A DNA stretch of 36,227 nucleotides from the NCBI GenBank assembly GCA_016215345.1, contig JACRKD010000012.1:1-36227 (forward strand), in the 5' to 3' direction. Below are positions 9,568 through 23,333 of this stretch, in pieces. The DNA is from Candidatus Vogelbacteria bacterium (GTDB lineage: Bacteria; Patescibacteriota; Minisyncoccia; Phycocordibacterales; UBA12445). Position 1 is the first letter of the stretch; the number at the start of each line of letters is the position of its first letter. Made by a program: the position numbers and the translations under genes. A model generated the notes under the pieces. That model was not told where the DNA came from. It saw only the letters and a list, made by a program, of their open reading frames with translations, and did not search any database.

Positions 9568-10377
9568 TTAAAGCTGACTCTCAATGTTATTTATAAACTC
9601 TTCGGCAGTCGCAAACCCCATCTTCTCTTCTTCGGTAAGCTGCCGATCTTTTCGCCGGTCCAGATAAATCTGAAGATATTTTCTCGCTTCGGAAACAAAC
9701 TGTTTATTATTGGTAAGTCCCGAAATGTTATCAGACCTCAACCGGTATAAACCCAAAACTTTTTCTATATAACCGAATTCATATTTTTCGCTAATTCGAT
9801 TCCAAAGCTCAACATCTTCGTGGATTCTTAAACTCTCATTGAACCCTCCGACATCCTCAATAACCTTTTTTCTGATTACTGCCGAAGATATCTGAATTGG
9901 TGAATTATCAATAAAAAACGGAACAGTGAACTTATTTTGGGGGGGATTTTTTTGGAAACGCGACCTTGTCTCTGTCACATAATTGACACCGATTTGCTGA
10001 TCCGCATACACGACAAAAGTATCCTGATGAGATTTTAAGTAGTTCATGGCGGTGGACAAAAAGTCCCTCGCCCATAGGTCATCGGCATCTAGAAAAGCCA
10101 GATACTCCCCTCTGGCCTCCTTAATACCAAAGTTCCTCGCCGCCGCGGCTCCCTTATTTTTAGTCTCGAAAAATCTAAGCTGGAGATCCACTTGCCCTGA
10201 TTTTGGTAGGAAGATAGATTTAACGTACTCTTCTGTACCATCATTAGAGCCGTCATCAACAACTATAATTTCATAATCAGAAAAATCCTCTGCCAAAACA
10301 CTTTTTATCGCCTCCTCTAAAAGATTCCGACGATTATAAGTTGGGATTATTACGCTAACCAAAGGCACTTTCTCCAC
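9568..10377 (-). CDS. GT2 family glycosyltransferase
   Basis: VSVIIPTYNR, VVDDGSNDGT, G...ARN.GI..A.GEY.AFLDADD, GGFNE, ED.ELW.R; start probably GTG 10377. Confidence 0.92.
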   Translation of the reverse strand: MEKVPLVSVIIPTYNRRNLLEEAIKSVLAEDFSDYEIIVVDDGSNDGTEEYVKSIFLPKSGQVDLQLRFFETKNKGAAAARNFGIKEARGEYLAFLDADDLWARDFLSTAMNYLKSHQDTFVVYADQQIGVNYVTETRSRFQKNPPQNKFTVPFFIDNSPIQISSAVIRKKVIEDVGGFNESLRIHEDVELWNRISEKYEFGYIEKVLGLYRLRSDNISGLTNNKQFVSEARKYLQIYLDRRKDRQLTEEEKMGFATAEEFINNIESQL

Positions 10378-10478
10378 AATAATAGTATATATCACCTGCC
10401 GGCCGGTATCTAGCCAAAAGCCTGTAACCCACCAAAAACCTCATAAATTAAGGAGTTATTGGCCATATGACTATATAG

Positions 10479-10931
10479 CTACCTCTGAAATTCTACCTCA
10501 AATGGATACATACCCATCCCGCAACTTCCCCATAACACACCGAAGGGCTGAACACCAAGATCAATATCTGTGCTTCCCGTTTGCGGAAGTATTTTGCTGA
10601 ATCCCAAGCTTGGAATAATGACCGCCGCCGAACAGTCAAAAGTGCCGTTTGTATTAATTCGCAAAACTGTCGGCATATCGGCTTTCGCGATACTCCTATA
10701 CGGTAGATATCCACCCTTGGCCCGGATTTCAACTATCTGACGACCGCCCACCAAGGAGACATTATCACCCGTAGTCGCGGAAGAAAAACCACTGCTGTCC
10801 CCTCCGCTAGAATTAACGAAGGCAATAGCGCCGACGACGATCAGCCCGGAAATTAAAACTGACACAACCACAGATTTCATCCCGCTAGGTACGCCAACTC
10901 CGTCTCCTAATTTTTTTTTATTTTTCGTCAA
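10479..10931 (-). CDS. Membrane-anchored cupredoxin-domain protein (CupA-like)
   Basis: TM anchor, KGGY.P, DCS and SCGMGMY motifs. Confidence 0.82.
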   Translation of the reverse strand: MTKNKKKLGDGVGVPSGMKSVVVSVLISGLIVVGAIAFVNSSGGDSSGFSSATTGDNVSLVGGRQIVEIRAKGGYLPYRSIAKADMPTVLRINTNGTFDCSAAVIIPSLGFSKILPQTGSTDIDLGVQPFGVLWGSCGMGMYPFEVEFQR

Positions 10932-10934
10932 ATT

Positions 10935-11957
10935 TTAAAAGTTAAAAACCGGAGGGAAGAGCCCGATCACAACCAAACTATTGATAATATTAAACAAGGC
11001 AAACAAGATAACTATAAGACCGGCGGTTTTAAAGAAAACCCCAGACCCGGAGCTACCCTTGATACTAAAAGAACTAAAACTTATTAAAGCCAAAACCGGC
11101 AGGGTCCCAAGGGCGAATGATAACATCGTTAATCCGCCAGAAAGAAAACTCCCTGCCGACAGCGTATAAAGTTGCATCGATTGTGTAAACCCGCATGGCA
11201 GAAAAAAAGTTGCGATACCAACCAAAAAAGGTGTAAACGTGTGATTAAAATTAGCAACTCCGATCGCATATCTGGAAATAACCTTCGGCATGCCGATTTG
11301 GAAACGTTTCGCAAGGTGAAAGGTATCTAACAAATTTACCCCCATTATTAACATAACCAGACCGACAAAGAAATTCAGAAGGAATGTCATGGTCGTATTC
11401 AAAACGAAGGCAGAACCCAGAGCGCCAATCATGCCACCGAGAATAAAAAACGAGGCAACGCGACCGATATGGAATAGAAGTTGCGGCCTCCATTTATCTC
11501 CCTCTTTGGCAAATGTAGCCGACATAGACAAGAGAAGTCCTCCGACAACCGCCATACAAGTTGAGAGAGAAGCGACCACCCCGATCATAAAAACCCCTCC
11601 GTAAGAAAGTTCCCCGCTTCCTATTAAATTTAATAAACCGGCTTTCTGTAGCAAAACAAACAACGCAATAAATACCGTAGCTATCGGTATCGCAATCTTG
11701 AACTCTGACCAATTCACTTCCTTTATTGGTCTTGCGATAGACAAGGAGTACCCGTGCTTTCGTAACTTATGCGAAAGTTCCATGGCCACGGCTTCCGGTG
11801 ACCTACCTCCAAAATTACCAGTTACTACGACAGAGTGGTCTTTGAGACTAGACTTAGCACTCGTGATATAAGATACACCTCGAAGTTCATTCTCGATTAA
11901 AAGTACGCACAACTTGCAGTGCATTCCAGCGACATAAAACGTAAAAGTTTGTTCCAT
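10935..11957 (-). CDS. HMA domain fused to a DsbD_2/TauE-like multipass membrane protein
   Basis: GMHCKLC HMA motif; TM motifs STCMAVVGG, FH.GR, FFLPCGFTQ, FALGTLP. Confidence 0.88.
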   Translation of the reverse strand: MEQTFTFYVAGMHCKLCVLLIENELRGVSYITSAKSSLKDHSVVVTGNFGGRSPEAVAMELSHKLRKHGYSLSIARPIKEVNWSEFKIAIPIATVFIALFVLLQKAGLLNLIGSGELSYGGVFMIGVVASLSTCMAVVGGLLLSMSATFAKEGDKWRPQLLFHIGRVASFFILGGMIGALGSAFVLNTTMTFLLNFFVGLVMLIMGVNLLDTFHLAKRFQIGMPKVISRYAIGVANFNHTFTPFLVGIATFFLPCGFTQSMQLYTLSAGSFLSGGLTMLSFALGTLPVLALISFSSFSIKGSSGSGVFFKTAGLIVILFALFNIINSLVVIGLFPPVFNF

Positions 11958-11961
11958 ATTC

Positions 11962-14196
11962 CTAACTATTTAGTCTAAACCTGTTTAGAAGTAGCGAGTT
12001 GCCCACAACAGAGACAGAACTTGTAGCCATGGCAACGGAGGCAAAAATCGGGTTCATCAATATCCCCCAAATAGGATAGAGTATCCCCATCGCAACAGGT
12101 ATCAGGAGCACATTGTACGCGAATGCCCAGAAGAGATTCAATTTGATCGTTCGCATAGTCCTCTTTGAAAGTAATATAGCGCCGGCCACTGTTCTCAAAT
12201 CTTTGTTGATCAAGGTTATATCGGCCGCCTCAATCGCGACATCCGTTCCTGTGCCCATGGCGATACCGACATCTGCCGCAACCAGAGCCGGCGCGTCATT
12301 TATTCCGTCGCCAACCATAGCGACTATTCTGCCCTCGGCTTGGATTTTCCTCACCTCTGCCTCTTTTTCTTGGGGCAAAACTTCAGCCAGCACTCTTTTA
12401 ATCCCAACTTGTGAAGCTATCGCCGTAGCCGTCCTCATATTGTCTCCGGTTATCATAATAGGTTCTACACCCATCCCTATCAACATAAGAATCCCGGCCT
12501 TCGATGACTCTTTGACTGTATCGGCAACGGCAATTAGTGATTCCAGGTTACCATCGATAGCGAGCATCATTACCGTTTTCCCCTCGCCTTCTAACCTTTC
12601 GACCTCTGCCAAATTATTGCCGAGCGAAACAGTTTCTTTGTCCATCAACCTCTTATTACCCAAAATAACACGTCTACTGTCCAGCACCCCTTCTACTCCG
12701 TGGCCGGGAATAGCCCTAAACCCTTCAGCCCTAACTAACGCAATGTTTTCCGTCTCTGCTTTACTCACAATACTTTCAGCCAGTGAGTGTTCCGAGCCTT
12801 TTTCCAAAGATGCGGCAAATTTGAGCGCCTCATCATGGGAAACGCCACCGACCGTTATTATATCCGTCACCTCCGGTTTGCCTTTTGTTAGAGTTCCTGT
12901 TTTGTCAAAAATTACAGTAGTCACCTTATGAGCGGTTTCTAAACTCTCCGCATCTTTAATCAAGATTCCACTCTCCGCGCCCTTGCCCGTTCCAACCATT
13001 ATAGCTGTCGGCGTCGCGAGCCCCATAGCGCAAGGGCAAGCGATTATAAGCACGGCGATCATATTAAGCAGCGCGTAGAGAAGCGCCGGTGCTGGTCCCC
13101 AAACATACCAACCAACGAAAGTAACAATGGACAACATTAAAACTATCGGTACAAAATTGGCAGAGACCAGATCGGCCAATCGCTGTATTGGCGCCTTACT
13201 CCCCTGCGCGTCCTCAACCAATTTAATGATTTGCGCGAGCATGGTTTCGGATCCAACCTTAGTGGTCTTAAAGGTAAAACTGCCGTTCTTGTTTAATGTC
13301 GCCCCGACAACAGTATCCCCGACAGTTTTGTCCACAGGCATACTCTCACCGTTTATCATGGACTCATCTATTGACGACTCACCTTCTAAGATAACCCCAT
13401 CAACAGGAATCTTTTCTCCGGGACGCACACGGATTACATCTCCTATCAACACATCTTTTATCTCTATATCAATCTCCTTGCCATCTCTCAAAACCCTAGC
13501 GGTCCTTGCTTGAAGGCCGATAAGTTTTTTAATCGCTTCAGATGTTCCCGCCTTGGCCTTAGCTTCGAAGTAACGACCGAGAAGAATCAAGCCAATAATG
13601 ATTGTAGATACATCGAAGTAGGGCATCGGATCAATTCCTATCTCTTGAACAACTTTCGGAAAGACCGTAACAAAAGCTGAATAGAGATACGCGACGGTCG
13701 TACCAATAACAACTAGAGTGTCCATATTGGCCGTTCTGTGCTTCAAGGCTGGAATTGTCGCTCGGTAAAACGCAAAACCTGCCCAGAACTGCACCGGGGT
13801 CGCCAAAATTAATTGCACCCAAAATTCTCGCAAAATTTTCGGCGCCGTCTCCATAAGTCCGGGGAAACTACCCCAGAGAATTAACGCCCCAAGTGTCAAA
13901 CTCACAATAACTTTAAATACAAGAGAATTTAGTTCCCTTAATTTTTCCTGTTTTTCTTCATCTTCTGATTGAAGCTCCTCACCAATCATCGCCTCATATC
14001 CAACATTTGAAACCGCAGAACTTATGTGTTCATCCGTAACCAAAGCTGGATCGTAATCAACGGTCGCCTTAGCACTGGCCAAATTTACAGACGCGATAGA
14101 AACCCCTGGAACTTTTTTAAGCGACCCTTCGATCATGGCCACGCACGACGCGCAGTGCATCCCCTTAATCGAAAAAGTTTTTTTGATATTGGCCAT
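11962..14196 (-). CDS. copA: Copper-translocating P1B-1 ATPase
   Basis: GMHCASC metal-binding domain, [25 protein letters not shown] and MATSS Cu(I) signature residues. Confidence 0.96.
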
Positions 14197-14214
14197 AATG
14201 AATTTATCGATTTT

Positions 14215-14823
14215 CTAATAATTTTTTCTAAATAAGTGCGCCTCTTTGATAATGGGGAAAGTTCTTTCTGCGACGAAGGAGAAACCGTTGTTAGTAAAAG
14301 CGTTGATATTATTTATATAAGAATGCGGAGTGAATTTATATATCTTAGCAATTATTTTCCCAAGCCAGTTATTCTTAACTGGTGTATTTAGAAAGTAACC
14401 ACCTTTCTTAAGACATGGAGCAAGACTTTTTACAGCCATTTCTATATTCTTAACGTACTCTAAAACACCCCCGGTTACGATGAGATCGAACTGCTCCGAT
14501 TCAAATTTTAGTGGTTTAGTCACATCGCCATTAAATATAGAGACGTGTTCATCTAATTTTTTTCTTCGGACAGTCGTTTCCATTATCTCAGTCATGGCAC
14601 TGTTCAGATCAAAGGCCTCTACTGAGACGTTAGGAAATCGTCTTAATATCGCAAAGGTATAAAGACCTGTTCCACAACCAGCGTCAAGAACCTTAAATCT
14701 ATCTTGTTTCTGAAATGGTATTGGAGCAATAAAATAGCTGACCGCCAACCTATACCCAAAAATCCACAGTCCAAGGTCGTAAAATCTTGCAATTTTATAA
14801 TAAAAATTATTTGGGTCAGTCAT
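14215..14823 (-). CDS. Class I SAM-dependent methyltransferase
   Basis: VLDAGCGTG, FDLIV..GVLEYV, LKKGG. Confidence 0.88.
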   Translation of the reverse strand: MTDPNNFYYKIARFYDLGLWIFGYRLAVSYFIAPIPFQKQDRFKVLDAGCGTGLYTFAILRRFPNVSVEAFDLNSAMTEIMETTVRRKKLDEHVSIFNGDVTKPLKFESEQFDLIVTGGVLEYVKNIEMAVKSLAPCLKKGGYFLNTPVKNNWLGKIIAKIYKFTPHSYINNINAFTNNGFSFVAERTFPIIKEAHLFRKNY

Positions 14824-14826
14824 ATT

Positions 14827-15393
14827 TTACTCTTTAAGATTCTTTTCCCATTCAAAAACTGCTCCTCCGAGATTAACGAACCTGCTAAGATTGCTGAACC
14901 TAAGTTCACTTTTTTTGCTCGACAAGATCACGGCTAGTTTTTCAAAATCCCTAATATGAGCACCCTTGTCCAGCCAAAAGACAGGATAAGCTAAGAATTT
15001 CATCTGTCCAGGTAGCACCAGGTCCACTATCAAAACATGGCCATGTTCCTTGGTGACACGAAACATTTCATGTAATACCCTTGCACATTCATCGTCAGAT
15101 AAGTGGTGAAAAACGGCAACTGAAAACGACAAATCAAAACTACTGTCTGGAAAATTAATTTTTGTCGCGTCCATAGTTTCAAAACGAGAATTTGGATACT
15201 TCTTCTTCGCGCTCTCTACCTCACTCAGTTCTTTATCGATGCCGATATAACCGTTATCAAATAACTCCGAAACCATACCGGAACCACAGCCTACATCCAA
15301 AACATCCCCGCCTTTAAATTGTACCGAGTCAAGGTATTGTTTCAGTCCGTCTTTTTCAATTTTCTCAAACCATTTTTCTAATACTCCAAACAT
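14827..15393 (-). CDS. Class I SAM-dependent methyltransferase
   Basis: VLDVGCGSG, FPDSSFD, VFHHL, EMFRV.K; the start may be ATG 15393 or TTG 15414. Confidence 0.88.
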   Translation of the reverse strand: MFGVLEKWFEKIEKDGLKQYLDSVQFKGGDVLDVGCGSGMVSELFDNGYIGIDKELSEVESAKKKYPNSRFETMDATKINFPDSSFDLSFSVAVFHHLSDDECARVLHEMFRVTKEHGHVLIVDLVLPGQMKFLAYPVFWLDKGAHIRDFEKLAVILSSKKSELRFSNLSRFVNLGGAVFEWEKNLKE

Positions 15394-15410
15394 GTTGTTA
15401 ACTTGGAGGT

Positions 15411-16141
15411 TCAACCTCCAATTGATGCTACCGTAACAGCCGCTGTAAGATAATCCAAAAAACTTTTCTTATCTAAATAAATCGGCTTCAATTCATCTCT
15501 CAGTTTAAAAAGTTGCGGGTAATTTTTGAGATATCTGTCGATACCTTGAGTATTAGGAATCCAAAGTTTATTCAATGTTGGCTCGAGACCTAAAATAAAC
15601 ACTGTTGTTATTTCGTTAAGTGCCCAAAAAGGCTACCCCAACTGCTACCCTCTTTTGATTCAAGATATTTCGAATCAAAGATATACCACATCTGTACCAT
15701 CAGAATTTCGTGAGCTATTTTTCTTTTCTGCGCATTAGGATCTTCATAAGCATCACACGCAACTACGTTCTTACCTCTGTTAGAAATCCCTCGGTGAAAT
15801 GGACTGACTACTACCCTGTATTCGGAAAATTCCCACGGCACACCCGTTATATTTTCCACCTCGTTGTAAAAAATATCATTTATCTCATCCCATGTTTTTT
15901 GATAGTCGCTAACAGCCTTGTCAGTTATTTGCTCCTCATCCGCGTGCCTTTCCCACACGACCTTTTCAATTGCATCTTTTGCCTCTTCATAATTTTGAAC
16001 GGTTGAGATCATGGTCAACAACTCATCACCAATCTTCATCGTCCTTGCCCGATTCACCACACCGGCGGGATCCAGACTCTTTAACATTGACCACATCACA
16101 CGGGCGTCATATTCCGAATTTTTGGCAAAAATTGTTTTCAT
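15411..16141 (-). pseudogene. Hypothetical protein split by one frameshift (ORFs 15608-16141 and 15411-15602)
   Basis: Adding one T to the T5 run (15626-15630) joins ...WGSLF to WALNEITTVFILGLEP... This may be a sequencing error. Confidence 0.6.
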
Positions 16142-16161
16142 TTGCTAATTATATAGCCATA

Positions 16162-17127
16162 TTATTTTTTTAACAACAATAAAATCAATCCGATAATTCG
16201 GTCTTTATGCGATGGATCACTTTCAGCAACAAGAACGGTAAGTGCTGTAAGCGCGGAGGGGGTTAATTTAGACGTATCCAGGATATTAGCTTGCTTTAAA
16301 AACCAGACGAATGCAAAAGCGCCCGATCGCTTATTACCGTCGGTATAAGGATGATTCTTCACCATAAAATACAAAAGGTGTGCGGCTTTTTCTTCTACGG
16401 TCGGATAAAGTTCATTACCGCCAAAGGATTGCATTACGTTACCAACAATTCCCGCGACCGATCCCGCGCTCCGCTCATGACCAAATATTTCTGTCGCTTC
16501 ATCTTTTCCGATTAAAGTTCGACGTAGTTCCTTCAACCCTTCCGATACATTGGTAACGGTAATATCGACTTTTTTCTTTGTCAGTTTACCTTTTGGTGAA
16601 CGCTCCTTATCGTATGCATCAAGCGAGATCCATGTATCTGCAAATAGAGTAATTAGTTCAACCACATCTTTCGGATTAATCGAGGAACATGAAGGCAGAA
16701 GTTCCTTAACATCATCAACCATTCTCAAAAACTGCGCATAATTTTTCGCAACACGGCTTTTGTTTATTGCGAACCCATCCACAATATAGTTTCGTAATGT
16801 CTTCGTCGCCCAACGTCGAAACTCTATCGCGACCCTTGAATTTATCCTGTACCCAACACCCAAAATTACGTCGAATGAATAGAGGGTTAGCGGTTTATCG
16901 GAATTTGCATTATGCATTTTTTGCATATTGCTTTTCTCATCAATTTCACCATCTTTAAATATGTTATGAATATGACGAGACACTACCGACTGATCCACAC
17001 CAAAAAGATCTACAATCTGTGCCTGTGTAGCCCATATGGTCTCATGCGAAAAATCCCCGCGAAGTTCGATCGCACCATTCTTCGCCTGATATATAATCAC
17101 CCCTTTATTTTTCTGTGTGTTTTTCAT
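16162..17127 (-). CDS. RhuM-like N-terminal domain plus Fic/Doc domain protein
   Basis: ETIWATQAQI..LF, VGYRINS..A..FRRWA, and the Doc-type motif HPYTDGNKR. Confidence 0.92.
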   Translation of the reverse strand: MKNTQKNKGVIIYQAKNGAIELRGDFSHETIWATQAQIVDLFGVDQSVVSRHIHNIFKDGEIDEKSNMQKMHNANSDKPLTLYSFDVILGVGYRINSRVAIEFRRWATKTLRNYIVDGFAINKSRVAKNYAQFLRMVDDVKELLPSCSSINPKDVVELITLFADTWISLDAYDKERSPKGKLTKKKVDITVTNVSEGLKELRRTLIGKDEATEIFGHERSAGSVAGIVGNVMQSFGGNELYPTVEEKAAHLLYFMVKNHPYTDGNKRSGAFAFVWFLKQANILDTSKLTPSALTALTVLVAESDPSHKDRIIGLILLLLKK

Positions 17128-17150
17128 CCTCAAGATTCTATCACATTGTT

Positions 17151-17513
17151 CTACTCAACAATTATTTTTCCATGATACATATTCATCCCGCAGGAGTAAG
17201 TAAATTCGCCTATTTTGTTTGGCGTGATTTGGATAAAAACTTTTTGATTGAGGGGCAAAATCTTACGGATATTAAAATCTCCAAACACCACCTCCTCCAG
17301 ACACCCGGTCGGATCAGTACGAGTGAAATTAAGCGTAGTCGTCTTTCCCACTGGCACAGATATAACCTCTGGGTTATATCCTCCCTCCACCTTTATATCA
17401 ATAGAACCGGAAACCGCCACCGCCTTTTTATCTTTTTTATTCATAAAAAACCAATAAACAAAAACTATTGCTACTAATCCCACGACTATAACCAAAATTT
17501 TATCCGGAGTCAT
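17151..17513 (-). CDS. Membrane-anchored cupredoxin copper chaperone (CupA-like)
   Basis: TM anchor, V.GGY.P..I, GCLEEV, YSCGMNMYHGKI. Confidence 0.88.
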   Translation of the reverse strand: MTPDKILVIVVGLVAIVFVYWFFMNKKDKKAVAVSGSIDIKVEGGYNPEVISVPVGKTTTLNFTRTDPTGCLEEVVFGDFNIRKILPLNQKVFIQITPNKIGEFTYSCGMNMYHGKIIVE

Positions 17514-17549
17514 TGTATTTTTTATAAAGTTATAAAAGGCAGTCCCGTG

Positions 17550-17813
17550 TTACTGCTCGATACTAGAATTGTGCATCCAAACATAGTACCAACCAAAAAA
17601 CCAAGCTCCAATAAATACATAGACCGCTCCGAGCAAGAAACTGCCAAGGTCTAACCAAGTAAATCCCGGAAGTGTTTCAAAAAGTAAATGGTGTAATTTC
17701 ACTGCTTCCACGCTACGAAGAGGCAAAAGGCCGCCCAAAACACATAGCGTATAAACAATTTCTCCACCCAAAACGCACTTCCACACATACGATTGAAAAT
17801 TTAATTTCCCCAT
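17550..17813 (-). CDS. Small membrane protein (DUF5676-like)
   Basis: Two TM segments with Y.LCV, HH and PGF.W motifs; ATG at 17813. Confidence 0.65.
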   Translation of the reverse strand: MGKLNFQSYVWKCVLGGEIVYTLCVLGGLLPLRSVEAVKLHHLLFETLPGFTWLDLGSFLLGAVYVFIGAWFFGWYYVWMHNSSIEQ

Positions 17814-17866
17814 ATTTTTATAATTATTTAATAATCTATCTCGCCCGCGCAAAGCTACCTTGTGCG

Positions 17867-18622
17867 CTAAACATACCCCCTCCCCCTATGTGCTATTATA
17901 GCATGTCCAGCATATGAGATCATAACCCCAAGAGCAACAACAGACACAAACAGTCCGAAACCTTCATTATACGGGTCGCTGAACAATCCAACATCAGAGT
18001 GGGGAATCGAAATTGAAAGAATGAAATAGGTTCCAAGAGTAATCGCCCTCGTCTGAAGCCATCTTTCTCTATCAACAAACGCCACGACGAGCGCGGACAG
18101 AAGTACGGTGAGATGATGAATGGAGCTTAGAGTATAATTCAAATAAATAAACACCCAATTCCAAATAGTATAGCCGATAATCCACGCTAGGGACATTCCG
18201 TCCCAATGAACGTCTTTGTATTTTCCGTCGGTACCCAGATGAATAGTATCCACCCTATTCAATGTAAGAATTACCAAGAGACCGGCCACCGCATTAAGAT
18301 AGTTCGCAATATTGCCAGCCGAAATGTCCTTAATAACCGCCTCAAGAATATTGGCAACAAGAAATAGATAGATAGCCCATCGACCAAAACTTGTACGTCC
18401 GAGACTAGTAACCCTAAACAAAACAATCAAAACAATGCCCGCCATAACGGAAAATCCCTTAACCCACGGGAACCAACCCAAAACTCCTGATGATTCCCAA
18501 TAAGGAATAAGCAAAATTGGAATAACCGTAAATGTAACCAACGTTAATTTTGGACAACGACGAAATATCTCTTCCATCAGAAGTAAAATAATAAATATAA
18601 ACAAAAAATACAGTAAGGTCAT
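17867..18622 (-). CDS. Multipass membrane protein (DUF5692-like)
   Basis: WF.WVK..S, NILEAV..D, YLNA.AG, WII.Y..WN..F.Y, WLQ.RA.TL motifs; GGAGG SD. Confidence 0.72.
   Translation of the reverse strand: MTLLYFLFIFIILLLMEEIFRRCPKLTLVTFTVIPILLIPYWESSGVLGWFPWVKGFSVMAGIVLIVLFRVTSLGRTSFGRWAIYLFLVANILEAVIKDISAGNIANYLNAVAGLLVILTLNRVDTIHLGTDGKYKDVHWDGMSLAWIIGYTIWNWVFIYLNYTLSSIHHLTVLLSALVVAFVDRERWLQTRAITLGTYFILSISIPHSDVGLFSDPYNEGFGLFVSVVALGVMISYAGHAIIAHRGRGYV
17872..17903 (-). promoter_or_regulatory. Candidate internal promoter with a second CsoR-type operator
   Basis: Extended -10 TGCTATAAT (17903-17895) followed by CATAGGGGGAGGGGGTATG, a G tract flanked by CATA/TATG. Confidence 0.45.
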
Positions 18623-18645
18623 AAAAATCCCTCCTATATCACGTT

Positions 18646-19194
18646 TTACTTCTTCGAAAAAACTTTACGGCCTAACCAAACGACGGCCAAAACTAAAAGT
18701 ACTGTGACTAGAATTTGGTAGATTAACCCGAACCAATACATACCAGTCGATGACCCGCCCCAATTGCCCATCATACCGTAGCCACCATATCGAGATCCGT
18801 ATCCACCCATCATGCTTCCATATCCTCCCCAGCTACCCATCATTCCATATCCGTAATTAGAAACGCCCGTGCTGTCGTAACCTGTACCCAAAAATTGCTT
18901 ACCCATCTGAATATGCATAGCCCGCTCACCTGTCTCGCCAAATCTCGCAACTAAGGATTGATTCATGGCCTCATGCCCCGCCACCATCATAAGGCCCATG
19001 GCATACTCCCCCACTAGCTCAAACTGCTCATCGTTTAGTGAAGAGTATTGAAGCGTTTTGGCCTGAACTTGCTCTACGATGGCCCGACCCTCCGCCTCCT
19101 CTTCGGCTACCGAGGCCGCGAAAGCCACAGACGATCCCATCGACACGGCTATTAGTAATATCCCCGATAAAATTGCGATATCTTTTTTACTCAT
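18646..19194 (-). CDS. Exported membrane-anchored protein with Met/Gly-rich (GYGMMG) repeats
   Basis: Signal peptide, H..M..MH..MG helical domain, repeated YG(x)MMG, C-terminal TM helix. Confidence 0.78.
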   Translation of the reverse strand: MSKKDIAILSGILLIAVSMGSSVAFAASVAEEEAEGRAIVEQVQAKTLQYSSLNDEQFELVGEYAMGLMMVAGHEAMNQSLVARFGETGERAMHIQMGKQFLGTGYDSTGVSNYGYGMMGSWGGYGSMMGGYGSRYGGYGMMGNWGGSSTGMYWFGLIYQILVTVLLVLAVVWLGRKVFSKK

Positions 19195-19238
19195 ACCAAT
19201 AAAATTATTTTTGTAAATCTAACTATAATTGTATCATT

Positions 19239-19382
19239 TTAATGACAACATGAGTGATCTTTTTGATGCTCGTCATTTTTGAGCGAACTCTTTTTCTCTT
19301 CACATGACCCGTGTCCGCGCCTCACCATCCACAAATGACTTAGAACACAGAGCCCAAGCAATATCCACAATATATAATCCAT
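19239..19382 (-). CDS. 47-aa Cys/His-rich membrane microprotein (DUF2933-like), not in the ORF track
   Basis: Translated by hand: MDYILWILLGLCVLSHLWMVRRGHGSCEEKKSSLKNDEHQKDHSCCH*. It fills the gap between two co-directional operon genes. Confidence 0.75.
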   Translation of the reverse strand: MDYILWILLGLCVLSHLWMVRRGHGSCEEKKSSLKNDEHQKDHSCCH

Positions 19383-19400
19383 AATATTATTTTAAGACTA

Positions 19401-20315
19401 TTAAACACTGCAACCACCGCCACTCGCGCCACCACTATCTGGTTTGGTCACTGCCGATTTTATTTTGGCAAATCCTCCTCCGCTGGAATAATCGAACCCC
19501 AAGACCTCCCTAGGAGAAACATCCGCCCAGTCAATTCCTCGACCTTGCATATATGTCGCGATAGTTAAGTAGGTGTCCGGAAACCAATAGGAATTAACGG
19601 CAAGCGCGGCCTTATACATTTCATCCTCGCTCACACCTTGCGAGGCCATTAACTCAAGAAGTCCTAGCATAGCCATCCCATGATTACAATCCGGAAAGTG
19701 AGTGGAATTACCGCAACAAGGCCGATAAATATTTCTCGACACCCTCCCTACAAGAGCCTGCTGGTCAGAAGTTAAATCAAAAAACTTATGTTTGCTGTAA
19801 TGGTCCATCGGACTCCCTTTCGAAACAGTCCAACCGCCGGTTGAAGCAAAGTTACTGGCATCGCCGGATGACATCATCTCCCCAGAATCCAAAACAGGAT
19901 TCTTACTAGAAAGACCAAGCGCCCAGAGCAAGTTGAGGAGGTACGGCGCGTTGTCTTTCGTAATTTTAGCGCGGTCAGGATTATCACCAAACAACAACTT
20001 CTTTTCTTCTTCTCCAAGACCACCGCGACCGGCATAAATCTCTTCTAATTTACTGGCATCAATAACCCCCTCTTTAACGAGCCGCGCGCCAAGATCTCCC
20101 CATATAATCGGTAAGACTACGCCAGACGACGGTAAAACATCTCCTTCGGAGACCACAGCCTGTCCAAGAGAAGCGCTAGCTCTATTCCCGCCAGGGGACG
20201 ACACCTCCGCACCGCCCCGCGTGCCGGATAACGCCATAACAAATATTATTATAGTGGCGACAGTTATCGCGATGGAAGACGTAAGACTATCTTTATTTAT
20301 TTCTTCATTTGGCAT
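19401..20315 (-). CDS. Uncharacterised membrane-anchored protein with a PCC-x8-C-NH motif
   Basis: N-terminal TM helix; IYRPCCGNSTHFPDCNHGMA; C-terminal GGGCSV. Confidence 0.8.
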   Translation of the reverse strand: MPNEEINKDSLTSSIAITVATIIIFVMALSGTRGGAEVSSPGGNRASASLGQAVVSEGDVLPSSGVVLPIIWGDLGARLVKEGVIDASKLEEIYAGRGGLGEEEKKLLFGDNPDRAKITKDNAPYLLNLLWALGLSSKNPVLDSGEMMSSGDASNFASTGGWTVSKGSPMDHYSKHKFFDLTSDQQALVGRVSRNIYRPCCGNSTHFPDCNHGMAMLGLLELMASQGVSEDEMYKAALAVNSYWFPDTYLTIATYMQGRGIDWADVSPREVLGFDYSSGGGFAKIKSAVTKPDSGGASGGGCSV

Positions 20316-20327
20316 GTTTATTTTTTA

Positions 20328-20807
20328 TTAACAACAACCTTTTTTCATCTCTTCGACCAATTTTTCTACTTTTTCTCCGGATCCGTGGAGAAGACTGCGA
20401 GACTGCAACCGATTACTTTTTGTCATATCAATAAATAGGTAAAGTATAACGGCCAAAACAACCAACGCGAACAAAGCGCTAGGCCAATCAAACGATACCA
20501 ACTCATAGGAGAGACCAAACCCCGTCGTCATAAAGAGAGTTTTCCACACAAGTTGTGATCTCCCGCTACGGAGGTTACCCTCCAATTTATACGCGATTCC
20601 CACAATTGAACCACCCATCAAGATCGCGGTCGGCAACTGGAATTCCGTAACGGGAAGCCAGAAGAAAGACATACCTATAAACATTACGATCCATGTGAGA
20701 GATACCCCGACGCACACTGGGCAGATGTTCCATGAAGAAAGTCGGCTAACGGCTCTGGCCGAGAAAGTTACAATCAGGATTGATGATAATACAAGAATTA
20801 TCGTCAT
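20328..20807 (-). CDS. Uncharacterised multipass membrane protein with CxxC and a terminal CC
   Basis: ICPVC at the start of a TM helix; ends in KKGCC. Confidence 0.78.
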   Translation of the reverse strand: MTIILVLSSILIVTFSARAVSRLSSWNICPVCVGVSLTWIVMFIGMSFFWLPVTEFQLPTAILMGGSIVGIAYKLEGNLRSGRSQLVWKTLFMTTGFGLSYELVSFDWPSALFALVVLAVILYLFIDMTKSNRLQSRSLLHGSGEKVEKLVEEMKKGCC

Positions 20808-20813
20808 GTTAAT

Positions 20814-21593
20814 TTAGATAAAGAAAATTAAAAATCCAATAATTATCATAATAACACCGGCCCATAATTTTACCTTGCCTATATTTTGAACTTTCCATTC
20901 TTGAATTTTACCCAGGACACTTTTATCCGCGGCGACAAAAAGAACTGCAACAAGCGGAACAATAAGGATCAGATTGTAAAGCAGTAAATAAAGAACGCCA
21001 GAGAAATATGTAACCTGATCGCGGAGAAGTCCTATAACCATGAGATACGGTCCGCCCATGCAAGGGAACTGACAAATGCCAACCAAGAGACCCAAACCAA
21101 ACGCGGCGAATATGGAAGTTCTCTCCATGAGTCGTGCCATCGCGCCGTGAACGCCACTTGGCAGTTTCAACTTGATCGGAAATCTTGGGAAAAATTCATT
21201 TATGATGTTTATAATCCCGAAGACGATAAGCAGTGTGGCACCGAGTTTCCCCATAAAATGCGGGGTGTTAAAGATATGCAAGACCCTGAGAATTCCTAGT
21301 CCGATAAAGAAGTAGGCCGCGAAGATACCAGCAATATACATTCCGCCGATCTGGAGGATTCGCCTTCTCGTCATCTCCACTCCGAAGAGAAAAGCAATTG
21401 TCAGAAGGAGAATAGAAAATGAACACGGATGAACACTATCAAGAAGCGCCGACACGAGGATCAAAGGCAGTAACCACGCCCCTTGATTACTTACCGACCA
21501 AAGGAAAGTTGAGGTTGAAGAACTATTTTTCAGAAAGACAATAGCCACAATCGACACGATAATCACAGCCAAAATTATATTTATTCTTTTCAT
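20814..21593 (-). CDS. CcdA/DsbD-like transmembrane thiol electron carrier
   Basis: DSVHPCSF and CQFPCMGGPY motifs, six to seven TM helices. Confidence 0.82.
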   Translation of the reverse strand: MKRINIILAVIIVSIVAIVFLKNSSSTSTFLWSVSNQGAWLLPLILVSALLDSVHPCSFSILLLTIAFLFGVEMTRRRILQIGGMYIAGIFAAYFFIGLGILRVLHIFNTPHFMGKLGATLLIVFGIINIINEFFPRFPIKLKLPSGVHGAMARLMERTSIFAAFGLGLLVGICQFPCMGGPYLMVIGLLRDQVTYFSGVLYLLLYNLILIVPLVAVLFVAADKSVLGKIQEWKVQNIGKVKLWAGVIMIIIGFLIFFI

Positions 21594-21598
21594 GGCTT

Positions 21599-22093
21599 TT
21601 ACGGAGTAACCATGGCCTTTATCTCAACTTGGAGCGCGCTGCCATTTTTCTCTGTAACATAGACGAAACGGTCTATAGCACCAACGCCGGCCGGGCCGTG
21701 AGCATTCGGATCGTAAACCACTTCCACCTCCATGGACTCTCCCGACTTAATTGTCTCGTCTGCCGGTGGGACAGCGCCCATTCCGGGCATCCCAAACGGA
21801 CCCTTCTTCGATTCACCCTTAACTATATAAGCCGCTGTACACATGCACGACGTCGTCACACTCGCGATTTTAATTTCATTTTGCGTCGGGTTGTTGATTT
21901 TGAAGACGTGACTCACCTTGCCGTTCGCCATTGAGATTGTGCCGAAATCGTAAAGTTGTTCAGGGGCAGTTATGAGACTCGCCGTATTTTTGTCTTGCGT
22001 CCCAGGTGACGGCTGACTATCAGACTTGAAGGCCAGGACAAAGAACAGGCCCAGAAAAATTATAGAGAATAAAACTATTGCTTTTTTATCCAT
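21599..22093 (-). CDS. DUF1573-like Ig-fold exported protein
   Basis: YDFGTI, F.I.N, TTSCMCT, GPFGMPGM, YDPNAHGP. Confidence 0.82.
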   Translation of the reverse strand: MDKKAIVLFSIIFLGLFFVLAFKSDSQPSPGTQDKNTASLITAPEQLYDFGTISMANGKVSHVFKINNPTQNEIKIASVTTSCMCTAAYIVKGESKKGPFGMPGMGAVPPADETIKSGESMEVEVVYDPNAHGPAGVGAIDRFVYVTEKNGSALQVEIKAMVTP

Positions 22094-22125
22094 AGAATTA
22101 AACTAAACTGATAAAAACCTTCCAG

Positions 22126-22524
22126 TTAGTTTAAAGATGGGCTATTTTCCAGAAGAGATAACCAATAAAAATCTTTTTGTCGTTTGTTGGAATACGCCAA
22201 GTTAGATCTCGGACCAAAATATATCTGTTGTAATTTCAGCTTTTGTCTCTGATAAAAAATGAGCCCGGTTCCCAGCAGTAAGAACAAGCCTATAATGGAC
22301 AAGGTAAAACCGTATAGAGAGACAATCGTAACATTGGAGAATATGTTGTACGCCCTTATGTGCTGAAGCGCGAAATCGACAGCAGTGGAAACACAAGCAA
22401 CTCCGCTCACTGTAGACGCTATACATCCACCGCCAGAGTGATCCATAGACTCGACCATAGATACAAAACCCAGTATAGTGGTAAAAATAAGAGTTATAAA
22501 TAAAATTGAAGCCAGATATTTCAT
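22126..22524 (-). CDS. Hypothetical membrane protein with a M-D-H...C...C...H loop
   Basis: Two TM helices flanking MDHSGGGC-x9-C-x10-H; begins 4 nt after the csoR stop. Confidence 0.7.
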   Translation of the reverse strand: MKYLASILFITLIFTTILGFVSMVESMDHSGGGCIASTVSGVACVSTAVDFALQHIRAYNIFSNVTIVSLYGFTLSIIGLFLLLGTGLIFYQRQKLKLQQIYFGPRSNLAYSNKRQKDFYWLSLLENSPSLN

Positions 22525-22528
22525 CCTT

Positions 22529-22792
22529 TTATCTGCGCTTTAGTCGATAAACTCTAAGTATCTCACCTATCGCTTTTTTCTCACCTCCCGCCTTCATCTG
22601 TCGCAAGGCACAAGTGCTAAGATGACCCTCCACAAGAGAGTCTTCTACGCCGGAAAGCGCTTGTTTAACAGCCGAAGTTTGGGTAATAACATCTATGCAG
22701 TATTTATCATTTTCCACCATATCTTCCAGCCCCCGGATTTGCCCTTCTATGATCTTCAGCCTCCTCAAAATTTTATTCTTCTCCGGATTCAT
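22529..22792 (-). CDS. csoR: CsoR/RcnR family metal-sensing repressor
   Basis: RRLKIIEGQIRGLEDM, YC.DV..Q, HL.TC (Cys-His-Cys Cu(I) fingerprint); heads the copper cluster. Confidence 0.92.
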   Translation of the reverse strand: MNPEKNKILRRLKIIEGQIRGLEDMVENDKYCIDVITQTSAVKQALSGVEDSLVEGHLSTCALRQMKAGGEKKAIGEILRVYRLKRR

Positions 22793-22799
22793 TACCTCC

Positions 22800-22829
22800 A
22801 TTATATACCCCCAGAGGGTACAAAGTCAA
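22800..22829 (-). promoter_or_regulatory. sigma70 promoter with a CsoR operator in the spacer
   Basis: TTGACT-18 bp-TATAAT. The spacer contains the pseudo-palindrome TACCCTCTGGGGGTA (22820-22806), typical of C-tract/G-tract CsoR boxes. Confidence 0.85.
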
Positions 22830-22842
22830 GTTGTCGCATGAT

Positions 22843-23094
22843 TTATAAATTATTGTATGTATTATCGTTTCTATTATCCACCGAATAAATCTTAATTCCG
22901 ACTGGGGAACTTGACAGGAGTTCGAAGACGACCCTTATCCTCCCGCTTCTTACGCGATACAGATTGCTAAATCCCTTAAGCTTTTTTATGTTTAACATTT
23001 TCCACTCCCCAGAGTATATCTCATCTATCACTCGTTCCATGCAATCCAGTTCCTGCGGGCGGAGTTTGCGAAGAAATTTATCTATTTTATCCAT
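22843..23094 (-). CDS. RelE/ParE family type II toxin
   Basis: MDKIDKFLRKL...IKKLKG..NLYRVRSG.IRVVF...R...TY; overlaps the antitoxin stop. Confidence 0.82.
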   Translation of the reverse strand: MDKIDKFLRKLRPQELDCMERVIDEIYSGEWKMLNIKKLKGFSNLYRVRSGRIRVVFELLSSSPVGIKIYSVDNRNDNTYNNL

Positions 23095-23326: not shown

Positions 23327-23333
23327 GCCCATA

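Follow-up and report, generated by a model that had tools for sequence, protein, structure and literature searches.

A csoR-headed gene cluster in a Candidatus Vogelbacteria bacterium with a proposed copper-induced envelope thiol module

What is the role of the many small membrane proteins, rich in potential metal ligands, whose genes follow csoR in a Candidatus Vogelbacteria bacterium (Patescibacteriota)? The DNA analysed, called the window below, is the 36,227-nt contig JACRKD010000012.1 of assembly GCA_016215345.1. A sequence-only reading had proposed an undescribed extracytoplasmic copper-handling pathway in which CcdA-like carriers keep exported Cys ligands reduced. The best explanation of the locus is a cluster of a kind typical of Parcubacteria-type CPR bacteria, here rearranged and split by an inserted block. 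With somewhat better than even confidence, we take it to be a CsoR-controlled copper-defence cluster with a copper-induced envelope thiol module as proposed below, in which orphan Cys-rich envelope proteins probably bind copper once it has been exported and maintain their own thiols in reduced form.

All cluster features lie on the minus strand, the genes in the order csoR, g02–g11, g12–g16, copA, g18, g19, with intergenic gaps of -4 to 44 nt; g02–g11 are ten tightly packed co-directional ORFs running from 22524 down to 17151. The arrangement first described, with csoR and its operator, ten genes, an interruption, copA, an HMA-DsbD_2 gene and a second cupredoxin, was confirmed at its coordinates, and every quoted motif was found (SCMC, HPC/FPC, CPVC plus terminal CC, PCC..CNH, SCCH, MMG repeats and CGMNM/CGMGM). 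That nearly all the genes carry ligand motifs also holds, g09 being the exception. A single strand carries almost all genes of the window.

The csoR gene (g01; 22529..22801) encodes a 90-aa Cu(I)-sensing repressor (PF02583, E 8.6e-25) with the canonical C-H-C fingerprint C35/H60/C64. Its second ATG (M4), behind GGAGG, may be the true start, and its best NCBIfam match is RicR, under that model's cut-off. C35 and H60 are kept in 40/40 relatives, while C64 is kept in 20/40, with His in the remainder; copA comes directly next in 16 of the 20 loci with C-H-C regulators. The csoR promoter (22800..22829; -35 TTGACT, 18-nt spacer, -10 TATAAT; 11/12 matches) is the top promoter-like site within 10000-23500. 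Its spacer is filled by the CsoR-type operator TACCCTCTGGGGGTA (22806..22820), which overlaps the -10 hexamer by one base and is the window's sole exact match to TACCCN4GGGGTA. With up to two mismatches allowed, eight such sites were found in the window against 6.1 expected, which is no enrichment, and the region upstream of copA holds no second CsoR box.

Several downstream genes have recognizable copper functions. The P1B-1 Cu(I)-exporting ATPase copA (g17; 11962..14196; 744 aa; TIGR01511, 614 bits, above cut-off) has one N-terminal HMA domain and the motifs CASC, CPC387, DKTGT431, N-x6-YN-x4-P at 687 and MATSS at 723; 8.6 kb and five foreign genes separate it from the csoR promoter upstream. 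In g18 (10935..11957; 340 aa) a cytoplasmic HMA domain (C14xxC17; PF00403, E 3.8e-8) is fused to a DsbD_2 membrane domain bearing C134 and C255 (PF13386, E 1.7e-30), and these Cys are kept in 28-29 of 30 relatives. A CupA-type membrane-anchored Cu(I) chaperone is encoded by g11 (17151..17513; 120 aa; Cupredoxin_1, PF13473, E 3.8e-23; motif C...C-G-M-N-M), with structure matches to Streptococcus pneumoniae CupA (2mry/4f2e, E 3.1e-22) and to a CopA metal-binding domain (4f2f, E 6.6e-11); a K/R-rich stretch behind its TM helix predicts a cytoplasmic domain. The cupredoxin g19 (10479..10931; 150 aa), also membrane-anchored, is a distant CupA-like protein (weak CupA match, E 0.0016; hhalign probability against g11 98.6) with the motif C100...C137-G-M-G-M141, whose C100, C137, M139 and M141 are kept in 26/26. 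Its domain is weakly predicted to lie outside (K/R bias before the TM helix, 12 orthologues vs 6). Topology predictions for all cluster proteins used hydropathy and K/R counts only.

The claim that this pathway is undescribed stands in part. A literature search and a search by DUF family names, covering titles and abstract openings, returned no paper on such a cluster. Excerpts of two papers (PMC4938975, PMC5646241) show that HMA-DsbD_2 in CsoR regulons and chaperones of the CupA type had been published before, and the architecture of g18 is that given for the Firmicutes CsoR meta-regulon in the excerpt of PMC4938975.

We compared the window with 80 related loci, taken from Patescibacteria genome assemblies as the top scorers (52-68% identity) among at least 582; they are also related to one another. 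Family counts in these 80 are copA 61, csoR 39, g02 66, g03 53, g04 50, g18 29, g19 26 (always alongside g18), g05 20, g10 18 and g07 15. Gene order and strand are conserved, and all members of these families share the strand of g06 except three copA copies. Where at least 7 kb was available on both sides of g06 (n=27), csoR or copA was present in 27/27 and copA in 26/27. Neither gene lies in the fetched stretch of 14 of the 80 loci, six of which reach 9 kb or more to one side (L011, L028, L044, L046, L054, L061). As first proposed, g02-g06, g10, g18 and g19 keep company with csoR/copA in related genomes, and in these loci they do not usually occur away from the two. Their motif residues (Cys, His and Met) are kept across orthologues despite low overall identity.

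CsoR boxes are also found at other genes of the cluster. The 80 loci hold 41 against a shuffle mean of 12 (shuffle maximum 26), and 19 of them lie directly before csoR, where the box-in-promoter layout of the window recurs. The same layout, with TTGAC and TATAAT-like hexamers, precedes g02 in L034, L069, L056 and L061, g18 in L026 and g06 in L049.

Central to the cluster is the orphan g06 (19401..20315; 304 aa), built of an N-terminal TM anchor, a linker, a domain folded over roughly residues 57-292, and a floppy tail that holds C302. The domain carries the "PCC..CNH" motif R198-P-C200-C201...D209-C210-N-H212. C200, C201, N203, D209, C210 and C302 are invariant among 80 diverse sequences with identity down to about 30%, and the His is near-invariant. 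Relatives number 7089 among 8000 scored and fall into 573 clusters at 50% identity, and g06 matches no Pfam or NCBIfam family. Its AF2 model (pLDDT 90, pTM 0.81) had no match in the PDB at E<=0.001. The sole named fold likeness is to CcmH; it is local (residues 167-276, including the Cys motif), appears in two independent models and falls short of significance by itself (Foldseek E 2.4 and 4.0; Atlas TM 0.30 when normalised to query length and 0.54 when normalised to target length). Moreover, g06 has CC...C where CcmH has CxxC.

Fusions give further information on g06. Of the 150 representatives listed, 32 carry an extension of at least 130 aa N-terminal to the domain, among them 21 with a polytopic membrane domain with one CxxC, three with rhodanese, and one each with HMA (E 1.3e-16), g05 and U5. 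Rhodanese-g06 fusions form a 220-member Atlas cluster. The g05-g06 fusion (P0134) comes from one contig and makes up a cluster with one member. The g06 domain is predicted to lie outside the cell from its TM anchor, the lipoprotein-like signal at the start of a rhodanese-fused relative (P0138) and a K/R bias favouring N-in in 37 orthologues vs 21.

Upstream, g06 is immediately preceded either by the pair g03 and g04 or by a DsbD_TM (PF02683) and AhpC/TSA-Redoxin pair. A membrane-anchored Ig-like DUF1573 protein is encoded by g03 (21599..22093; 164 aa; PF07610, E 2.1e-13), which adjoins g04 in related loci; its invariant residues are T-S-C83-M-C85-T and H132, and no similarity to DsbD-alpha or any solved structure was detectable. 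The polytopic membrane protein g04 (20814..21593; 259 aa) is a putative CcdA-like thiol carrier with HPC57 and FPC178 motifs, its relatives keeping C57 in 48/50, C174 in 49/50 and C178 in 50/50. Its description as CcdA-like is backed by the CcdA name of relatives at NCBI and JGI and by a weak ArsG match (E 1.3e-5), but not by the Pfam DsbD/DsbD_2 models, which gave no match even at E<=10, nor by a profile comparison with the DsbD_2 domain of g18, which found no relation. Neither a profile search of the PDB nor a fold search with its weak structure model (pLDDT 62) gave a match.

The two pairs alternate at the same place. Sixty-nine loci extend 2.5 kb or more upstream of g06; among these, g04 and DsbD_TM occur together in 1, g04 only in 44, DsbD_TM only in 16 and neither in 8 (Fisher p 5.6e-9, in which independence is overstated because the loci are mutually related); for g03 and Redoxin the counts are 1, 48, 15 and 5. 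Members of one pair or the other occur in 65/69, leaving g06 without both pairs in 4/69. On the g06 tree the swap requires at least nine changes, at least four of them forced by well-supported branches. That the pairs exclude each other and the swap recurs lends indirect support to a CcdA-like carrier as supplier of the reducing power.

Of the other candidate members, the orphan 2-TM protein g02 (22126..22524; 132 aa; no Pfam family) is the most widespread, always within 5 kb of g06. C34, C44 and H55, in a predicted outside loop, are kept in 67/67, 66/67 and 59/67 relatives, and the cytoplasmic C-terminus has a conserved RWLxLxENSPS. The family has 367 clusters; named records, from Patescibacteria or unclassified bacteria, are 'hypothetical' save for one JGI 'FliQ' label. 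The orphan membrane protein g05 (20328..20807; 159 aa; no family match) has CPVC where a TM helix is predicted to begin on the cytoplasmic side and a cytoplasmic tail ending in CC, with C29, C32, C158 and C159 kept in 20/20 at 28% mean identity; it never occurs together with U1. The 47-aa g07 (19239..19382) is DUF2933-like (20.7 bits, cut-off 21), with one TM helix and a predicted cytoplasmic tail ending S-C-C-H, of which C46 is kept in 15/15, H47 in 14/15 and C45 in 12/15. In g05 and g07 the Cys, and in g11 the domain, are predicted to face the cytoplasm, so that they do not belong to the exported ligands first proposed. The 2-TM protein g10 (17550..17852; 100 aa; DUF5676 21.5 bits, cut-off 27.6) is often directly behind csoR, and its C26, C37, H54-H55 and M93-H94 are kept in 16-18 of 18.

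We propose that Cu(I) would free the box from CsoR and the operon would be transcribed. At the membrane, Cu(I) would be gathered by sites on the cytoplasmic face, namely the CupA-type g11, the HMA domains, g05 with its CPxC and CC tail, and g07 with its CCH tail, and passed to CopA for export. At the outer face a split DsbD-like relay would bring reducing power out of the cell; it would consist of the putative carrier g04, with its two conserved Pro-Cys motifs, and of g03, with its CxC on an Ig-like DUF1573 domain. This relay would hold the thiols of g02 and of g06, with its Cys3-His site and floppy Cys tail, reduced. In that state both proteins could protect the envelope, either by capturing Cu(I) after its export or by reducing Cu(II) and the disulfides that copper produces. 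The scheme would be a functional parallel, with non-homologous parts, to Salmonella ScsB -> ScsC -> CueP. The excerpt of PMC10907172 describes DsbD-alpha and ScsB-alpha as thiol oxidoreductases of Ig fold that carry CX2/3C motifs; it also states that Cu+ is bound by ScsB and ScsC, which hand it over to CueP, and that CueP can take Cu+ from CopA. No homology of g02-g06 to ScsB, ScsC or CueP was detectable.

The same parts could serve envelope thiol repair alone, g04 -> g03 -> g06 being a reductase chain whose end is a CcmH-like thiol reductase/isomerase that fixes copper-catalysed wrong disulfides in exported proteins without itself binding or moving copper. CcmH as the sole named fold likeness, the stand-in of a true DsbD_TM and Redoxin pair for g03 and g04, the rhodanese fusions, which point to thiol/persulfide chemistry, and the description in the excerpt of PMC10907172 of Scs proteins as thiol oxidoreductases needed under copper stress all fit such a chain. 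We nevertheless consider it unlikely: a redox pair would not need four invariant Cys with a nearly invariant His, a vicinal CC and a floppy Cys tail, an HMA-g06 fusion exists, the resemblance to CcmH is weak, and g06 has no CxxC. Soft-metal hand-off typically involves vicinal CC pairs and Cys tails (MerT, MerF, MerA). In line with this is a further reading, which we regard as quite improbable, that Cu(I) itself crosses the membrane by ligand exchange without ATP, in a manner formally like Mer transport proteins but copper-controlled, between the g06 domain and a Cys-bearing membrane protein (g05, U5 or the CxxC domain) and likewise between g18 and g19. The placement of the g05 CxxC and CC tail, joined in one chain with the g06 anchor in P0134, would suit this conduit, as would the Cys motifs in membrane or HMA domains of 24/32 N-terminal g06 extensions, and g18, where a cytoplasmic HMA domain and a membrane domain with two conserved Cys adjoin the weakly outside-facing g19. 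Against it, profile and family searches found no homology to Mer transporters, g05 occurs in only 20/80 loci, its fusion to g06 is one single-member cluster, and direction and driving force are unclear.

Two readings would loosen the connection with copper. Were the Cys proteins movers of sulfane sulfur only loosely connected with the regulator and pump, the size of the rhodanese-g06 subfamily (three of 32 extended representatives plus the Atlas cluster) and the half of related regulators that are not C-H-C would be accounted for. We find this very improbable, given the Cu(I) fingerprint and CsoR-type box of the window regulator, the position of C-H-C regulators directly before copA, and the filling of the clusters with CupA-like, HMA, YHS and DUF2933 genes; persulfide dioxygenase and sulfide:quinone oxidoreductase were not seen among the recurrent families. 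The genes might also be coincidental neighbours of csoR and copA in a compact, co-directional CPR genome, as the layout with almost all genes on one strand, the lack of a second operator in the window and the poorly conserved neighbours g08, g09 and g12-g16 would allow. This reading is already disfavoured, and we give it scarcely any weight: order and strand are conserved across the 80 loci, g02, g18 and g06 have CsoR boxes of their own in some genomes, the Cys are invariant, and g06 occurs fused to HMA.

The preferred copper-defence reading leaves out some genes of the region. The 251-aa DUF5692 membrane protein g09 (17867..18622; PF18948, E 6e-29) has one Cys, no ligand motif and no counterpart in any of the 80 loci, and is not supported as a copper gene. 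Likewise left out is g12-g16 (14215..17133; Pfam, PADLOC), an unrelated insertion of a RhuM-Fic gene (g12), two unknown genes (g13/g14) and two SAM methyltransferase genes (g15/g16), each present in 0-3 of the 80 loci; g12 is a candidate defence gene (PADLOC PDC-S23, E 1.7e-102). Membership of g08 (18646..19194; 182 aa; no family) is uncertain. It has a signal/TM segment, Met/Gly/Tyr-rich repeats and a C-terminal TM, and occurs in just 5/80 loci. A different Met-rich TM-SHOCT protein, U2, is present in 19 loci.

The copper cluster lies on the minus strand, where csoR (g01, 22529-22801; PF02583) is followed by ten ORFs (g02-g11) that run from 22524 down to 17151 with intergenic gaps of 4-44 nt, by five inserted ORFs (g12-g16, 17133-14215), and then by copA (g17, 11962-14196; TIGR01511), an HMA-DsbD_2 gene (g18, 10935-11957; PF00403 plus PF13386) and a second cupredoxin-like gene (g19, 10479-10931), the last of the cluster. 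This is the layout that the sequence-only reading had described (csoR, ten co-directional genes, an interruption, copA, HMA-DsbD_2 and a second cupredoxin), and every ligand motif it cited was found in the window proteins. From sequence, synteny and structure models, which underlie all functional statements made here on the cluster, we infer that it combines a CsoR/CopA copper system with an envelope thiol module, similar to Scs/CueP, built of orphan families. One of these, the 304-residue central orphan g06, has a predicted fold without a significant match in the PDB.

Among the accessory genes Pfam assigns g03 to DUF1573 (PF07610, E 2.1e-13; 50.5 bits, cut-off 26.1) and g09 to DUF5692. g07 falls just short of DUF2933 (20.7; gathering cut-off 21), a family that turns up in the accessible parts of papers on copper-resistance clusters. 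g10 is short of the DUF5676 cut-off (21.5; 27.6); the clear DUF5676 match (E 1.6e-10) is another cluster protein, in related loci. g02, g04, g05, g06 and g08 have no Pfam family, and for the last four Pfam is empty even at E<=10. Profiles of g03, g04, g05 and g06 found nothing meaningful among PDB sequences, the matches to a prion, an RNA polymerase subunit and designed proteins being at chance level, and profile-profile comparison gave no relation for the pairs g04-g18, g05-g04, g05-g18, g02-g10 and g05-g02.

A scan of species-representative genomes gave at least 599 pattern matches, 582 of which were confirmed; the 80 loci analysed, which are interrelated, are the best-scoring of these (at least 582). 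By title they come from Parcubacteria-type lineages, except for one labelled Gammaproteobacteria. That locus (L076, CAZPPL010000019.1) holds a full Patescibacteria-type cluster under the title 'uncultured Gammaproteobacteria', which probably reflects faulty binning or labelling and not gene transfer. All 19 window proteins were mapped on the 80 loci by tblastn and by iterative HMM search of all ORFs. The orphan membrane protein g02 was found in 66 loci and copA in 61, followed by g03 (53), the putative CcdA-like carrier g04 (50), csoR (39), g18 (29), g19 (26), the orphan membrane protein g05 (20), g10 (18) and g07 (15). All copies of copA except three are on the g06 strand, and the usual order is csoR-copA-g02-g03-g04-(g05)-g06-g18-g19, so that the window shows a common cluster in rearranged form. 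Where g06 has at least 7 kb of flanking sequence on each side (27 loci), 26 contain copA and all contain csoR or copA. Neither gene is in the fetched stretch of 14 of the 80 loci, six of which have at least 9 kb on one side. The linkage to csoR and copA that had been proposed for the accessory genes stands for g02-g06, g10, g18 and g19, but does not extend to g08 (5/80) or g09 (0/80). The g02 family comprises 367 clusters.

The block 14215-17133 (minus strand), which splits the copper cluster, encodes g12 (RhuM-Fic), two small ORFs of no recognised family and two SAM methyltransferases. It looks like an insertion because each of its genes occurs in only 0-3 of the 80 related loci; no convincing flanking repeats were found. 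g12 matches the candidate defence family PDC-S23 of PADLOC (E 1.7e-102).

Grouping the unassigned ORFs inside the clusters of related loci gave further recurrent families: U1, a soluble protein ending in DCCKE (26 loci); U2, a Met-rich TM-SHOCT protein (19); U3, a DsbD_TM protein (PF02683) with APCC and CCAP (17); U4, an AhpC/TSA-Redoxin protein with a conserved C-Y-P-A-C (17); U5, a membrane protein with a CC motif (13); U7, an ICMT-like methyltransferase (11; e.g. L027 11570-12205); U8, a DUF302 protein (11; e.g. L048 11658-12038); and a YHS protein (5; e.g. L004 8156-8353). Cys-containing C-terminal tails of cluster proteins include CC, CCH, DCCKE and GCGI, the last in most g06 relatives.

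The copper core is assigned by family models. With 614 bits for TIGR01511 (cut-off 397), g17 is a copper P-type ATPase, in which CPC, N-x6-YN-x4-P, M-xx-SS and DKTGT are all present; the first three are the transmembrane (TM) signatures that, with DKTGT, mark a P1B-1 Cu(I)/Ag(I) ATPase. g18 joins an N-terminal HMA domain with CxxC (PF00403, E 3.8e-8) to a DsbD_2 membrane domain (PF13386, E 1.7e-30). g11 (Cupredoxin_1) is a clear homologue of CupA, at E 3.1e-22 to 2mry/4f2e with the ligands aligned, and g19 matches CupA at E 0.0016 and g11 at an hhalign probability of 98.6%. The CupA copper sites are C74/C111 and C74/M113/M115, according to the accessible part of PMC5646241.

CsoR itself (PF02583, E 8.6e-25; 87.4 bits against a cut-off of 22.8) has the ligands C35/H60/C64, and the x-C-H-C fingerprint belongs to the Cu(I)-sensing branch of the family. 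Its gene is preceded by TTGACT-ttg-TACCCTCTGGGGGTA-TATAAT, a GC-rich inverted repeat (22806-22820) lying between -35 and -10. The hexamer pair is the best promoter-like site of the region (11/12), and TACCCTCTGGGGGTA is the sole exact match to TACCCN4GGGGTA within the window. No second CsoR box was found in the window before copA, g11 or g18; copA is 8.6 kb and five foreign genes away from the csoR promoter. A terminator scan was at chance level (14 sites, 13.1 expected) and gives no evidence for or against a single transcript.

The box at the csoR promoter recurs before csoR in related loci. Allowing one mismatch, the 80 loci contain 41 CsoR-type boxes, against a mean of 12 and a maximum of 26 in shuffles. 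Nineteen lie directly before csoR, and several more do so under other labels because ORF starts are over-extended. Separate boxes stand directly before g02 (L034, L069, L056 and L061), before g18 (L026) and before g06 (L049), and each has TTGAC on one side and a TATAAT-like hexamer on the other, the arrangement seen in the window; in L061 the fetched stretch contains neither csoR nor copA. These boxes are the strongest computable evidence for the accessory genes as putative direct CsoR targets. One hit, at L026 7528, is a false positive inside copA.

Half of the related regulators (20/40) have His in place of the last Cys (C-H-H; for example in L002, L004, L007, L027, L034, L038, L045, L056 and L076). 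A g10-type two-TM protein follows nine of these 20 within 1.2 kb, and copA comes directly after 16 of the 20 C-H-C regulators. The C-H-H regulators may represent a further type of sensor, one that has a small membrane partner of its own.

The sequence-only reading would have been refuted by Cys and Met residues that are not conserved, and orthologue alignments of g02-g05, g10, g18 and g19 show them to be kept. In g02, at a mean identity to the window protein of 23%, C34 is kept in 67/67, C44 in 66/67 and H55 in 59/67; in g05, at 28%, C29, C32, C158 and C159 are kept in 20/20. The residues kept in the others are C83, C85 and H132 (54/54) and M84 (53/54) in g03; C57 (48/50), C174 (49/50) and C178 (50/50) in g04; C26, C37, H54, H55, M93 and H94 (16-18 of 18) in g10; C14, C17 and C134 (29/30) and C255 (28/30) in g18; and C100, C137, M139 and M141 (26/26) in g19.

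Topology was read from hydropathy, K/R counts and alignments, K/R counts being weakly decisive for single-anchor proteins such as g03 (17 vs 20). For g02 an N-in bias in 50 orthologues against 4 suggests that the loop with C34, C44 and H55 is outside. An outside location of the g06 domain is suggested by the K/R bias (37 vs 21) and by P0138, a rhodanese-fused g06 representative that begins with a lipoprotein-like signal; g19 is weakly predicted to be outside (12 vs 6 by K/R). For g05 (CPVC and CC tail), g07 (CCH tail) and g11 (CupA domain) the same analysis suggests a position on the cytoplasmic side. The cluster thus seems to have Cys sites on both membrane faces, and the earlier picture of ligands exported throughout would not fit g05, g07 and g11.

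How the exported thiols might be kept reduced is suggested by the genes just upstream of g06, where U3+U4 and g04+g03 occupy the same place and are mutually exclusive. In the 69 mutually related loci with at least 2.5 kb upstream, g04 and U3 occur together once, g04 alone 44 times, U3 alone 16 times and neither 8 times (Fisher p 5.6e-9); for g03 and U4 the counts are 1, 48, 15 and 5. One or more of these four genes occur in 65 of the 69. In a maximum-likelihood tree of 81 g06 proteins the pair type changes at least nine times, at least four of these forced by well-supported branches, and therefore the exclusion is recurrent rather than the history of one clade. We read the g04+g03 pair as probably doing the job of a DsbD/CcdA carrier with its oxidoreductase, by non-orthologous displacement. 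An Ig-fold redox partner would not be without precedent: according to the accessible sections of a review (PMC10907172), both DsbD-alpha and ScsB-alpha are thiol oxidoreductases that have an Ig fold and CX2/3C motifs.

g04 invariably adjoins g03, and the proposal that it is a CcdA-like carrier holds up in one respect: HPC57 (48/50) and FPC178 (50/50) place two conserved Cys, each after Pro, in separate predicted TM helices. It finds no echo in the family models, however, since g04 matches neither DsbD_TM (PF02683) nor DsbD_2 (PF13386) even at E<=10, and hhalign to the DsbD_2 domain of g18 gives a probability of 1.3, that is, no relation. The AlphaFold2 model of g04 is weak (pLDDT 62, pTM 0.51), and with it Foldseek returned nothing at E<=0.001 and chance-level matches only. 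The pointers to CcdA are the names given to g04 relatives in the source records and a weak ArsG match. A second exclusion concerns g05 and U1, each of which ends in vicinal Cys and lies directly before g06: in the same 69 loci none has both, 18 and 22 have one only and 29 have neither (p 3e-4).

The g06 family is large. A word-indexed search found 7089 relatives among 8000 scored candidates, and at 90% identity the family forms more than 7,000 sequence clusters; in an exhaustive search of representatives at the 50% level, 573 clusters match at E<=0.001 and 208 at E<=1e-30. All named records from the word-indexed search are 'hypothetical' and from Patescibacteria. Across 80 diverse members, down to about 30% identity, C200, C201, N203, D209, C210 and C302 are invariant, and R198, P199, N211, H212 and G213 are at least 90% conserved. 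The AlphaFold2 model is confident (pLDDT 90, pTM 0.81) and shows an N-terminal TM helix joined by a disordered linker to a folded domain, after which comes a disordered tail with Cys.

Foldseek found nothing in the PDB for this model at E<=0.001. Its only compact local matches are periplasmic domains of CcmH, namely 2hl7 (TM-score 0.65 by target, 63 columns, E 2.4) and 2kw0 (0.61). The ESM Atlas, with its own model, gives a CcmH cluster (PF03918) over g06 residues 167-276, which contain the Cys motif (TM-score 0.54 by target), and also a 220-member cluster of rhodanese-fused g06 relatives. The CcmH active site is R-C-x-x-C. Because the CcmH Pfam model is unmatched at E<=10 and the Cys motif of g06 is R-P-C-C...C-N-H instead, we treat the likeness to CcmH as a lead and not as membership.

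Fusions were surveyed in 150 listed g06 representatives, 32 of which have at least 130 residues before the folded domain. In 21 of the 32 the extension is a polytopic membrane domain with one CxxC (ACP[IV]CG), all from a single family; in three it is rhodanese and in one HMA (E 1.3e-16). Single cases are a fusion to g05 (P0134) and one to U5 (P0139); an AAA extension may be an artefact, and four extensions have no recognisable domain. The g05-g06 fusion weighs little alone because P0134 is a one-member cluster from one contig. Wiring of the g06 domain to a Cys-bearing membrane or metal-binding partner appears, from these sequences, to be a robust general pattern.

The cluster can be compared with several characterised systems. 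Salmonella ScsABCD/CueP (also DsbD/DsbC) shares the logic of a copper-induced envelope thiol system. In the accessible text of PMC10907172 the ScsB/DsbD membrane carrier exports reducing power via an Ig-fold CX2/3C domain to a periplasmic oxidoreductase, CueP is a Cys-based Cu+ binder that can accept Cu+ from CopA, and the Scs/CueP set is copper-induced. The likeness would be functional only: none of the Scs/CueP parts (DsbD-like ScsB, thioredoxin-fold ScsC, CueP) is matched by g02-g06 in Pfam, NCBIfam or the PDB, and in the window separate genes encode the carrier and the Ig-like protein, the regulator is CsoR rather than CueR/CpxR, and the host is a CPR bacterium. The CsoR-CopA(-CopZ) operons of Firmicutes and Actinobacteria share a C-H-C CsoR, a GC-rich inverted repeat at its own promoter and a P1B-1 CopA; HMA-DsbD_2 (COG2836) is an inferred CsoR meta-regulon member as well, in the part of PMC4938975 available. 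Unlike those operons the cluster has at least five extra conserved Cys-protein families (g02, g03, g04, g05/U1 and g06) and no CopZ gene, and in the window the accessory genes separate csoR from copA. Among Streptococcus pneumoniae CupA and the cupredoxin-like metal-binding domain of CopA (4f2e, 2mry, 4f2f), it is CupA with which g11 aligns end to end, keeping Cys...Cys-x-Met-x-Met, ligands that g19 has too; here, however, there are two copies under CsoR rather than CopY, and g19 is very divergent, is paired with HMA-DsbD_2 and may face outwards.

The cytochrome c maturation pathway (CcdA/DsbD-CcmG/ResA-CcmH) shares the gene order of carrier, oxidoreductase and client, g04 relatives are named CcdA, and residues 167-276 of g06 have a local likeness to the CcmH helical bundle; yet the clusters contain no cytochrome c or heme-handling gene, control would be by copper, and g06 has CC...C-x-H in place of CxxC. 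Mer transport proteins (MerT, MerF, MerC) are small, have Cys pairs in or near TM helices and cytoplasmic tails, and work with an HMA partner (MerP). The small membrane proteins of the cluster are like them in architecture without homology, and only the cluster HMA domains match MerP/MerTP models, weakly. A mercury system was rejected, as MerR and MerA are absent and both sensor and pump belong to the copper type.

A bolder extension of the copper-thiol reading, which we think improbable though worth stating, is that g06 would be a new class of surface-anchored copper chaperone or reductase whose Cys core is like that of CcmH. Its power would come from a hitherto unrecognised split DsbD analogue (the DUF1573 CxC protein and the two-Cys carrier), and it would be physically tied to membrane partners with Cys sites (g05, U5 or the CxxC domain), through which Cu(I) or electrons would cross the membrane without ATP. 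The result would be a CPR-wide envelope copper-defence pathway whose components have no kinship with those of any characterised pathway.

CPR/Patescibacteria account for much of bacterial diversity, and for most of their conserved genes no function has been assigned. Under the copper-thiol reading, g06, g02, g05, U1 and the g03+g04 pair acquire a role in envelope copper defence that is concrete and testable, and the cluster would show that cells lacking a classical periplasm have arrived at a known principle anew with unrelated proteins. The small soluble domain of g06, with its confident model, is suited to direct biochemistry and structural work. The accessible literature, searched also by DUF family names, contained no description of such a CPR cluster or of g02-g06; the available part of PMC8672522 remarks only that Patescibacteria carry copA.

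The genes around the cluster are also on the minus strand. Directly downstream (8255-10395), after an 83-nt gap behind g19 that is the largest of the run, are envelope genes with no relation to copper, encoding two family-2 glycosyltransferases and a membrane protein of the VTT/DedA type. Two overlapping small ORFs of 81 and 102 codons (22843-23332), next to the csoR promoter on its upstream side, are toxin-antitoxin-like by layout, with no match in Pfam or PADLOC. The 230-codon ORF at 23408-24100 has an Arg/Ser/Leu-rich translation that is not protein-like and is locally GC-richer (0.476); an Rfam scan of 23300-24300 gave no match at E<=1, and this ORF may be non-coding or a decayed gene. A few kilobases upstream of the cluster (25327-27480) a gene of conflict-system type encodes a 717-residue protein with an AEP-TOTE primase domain (E 2.4e-80) and ResIII/DEAD helicase domains. 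Between the two (24242-24610) is a 122-residue membrane protein without a Pfam match, which by eye is like an ORF family found inside the copper clusters of five related loci (e.g. L069 1721-2101).
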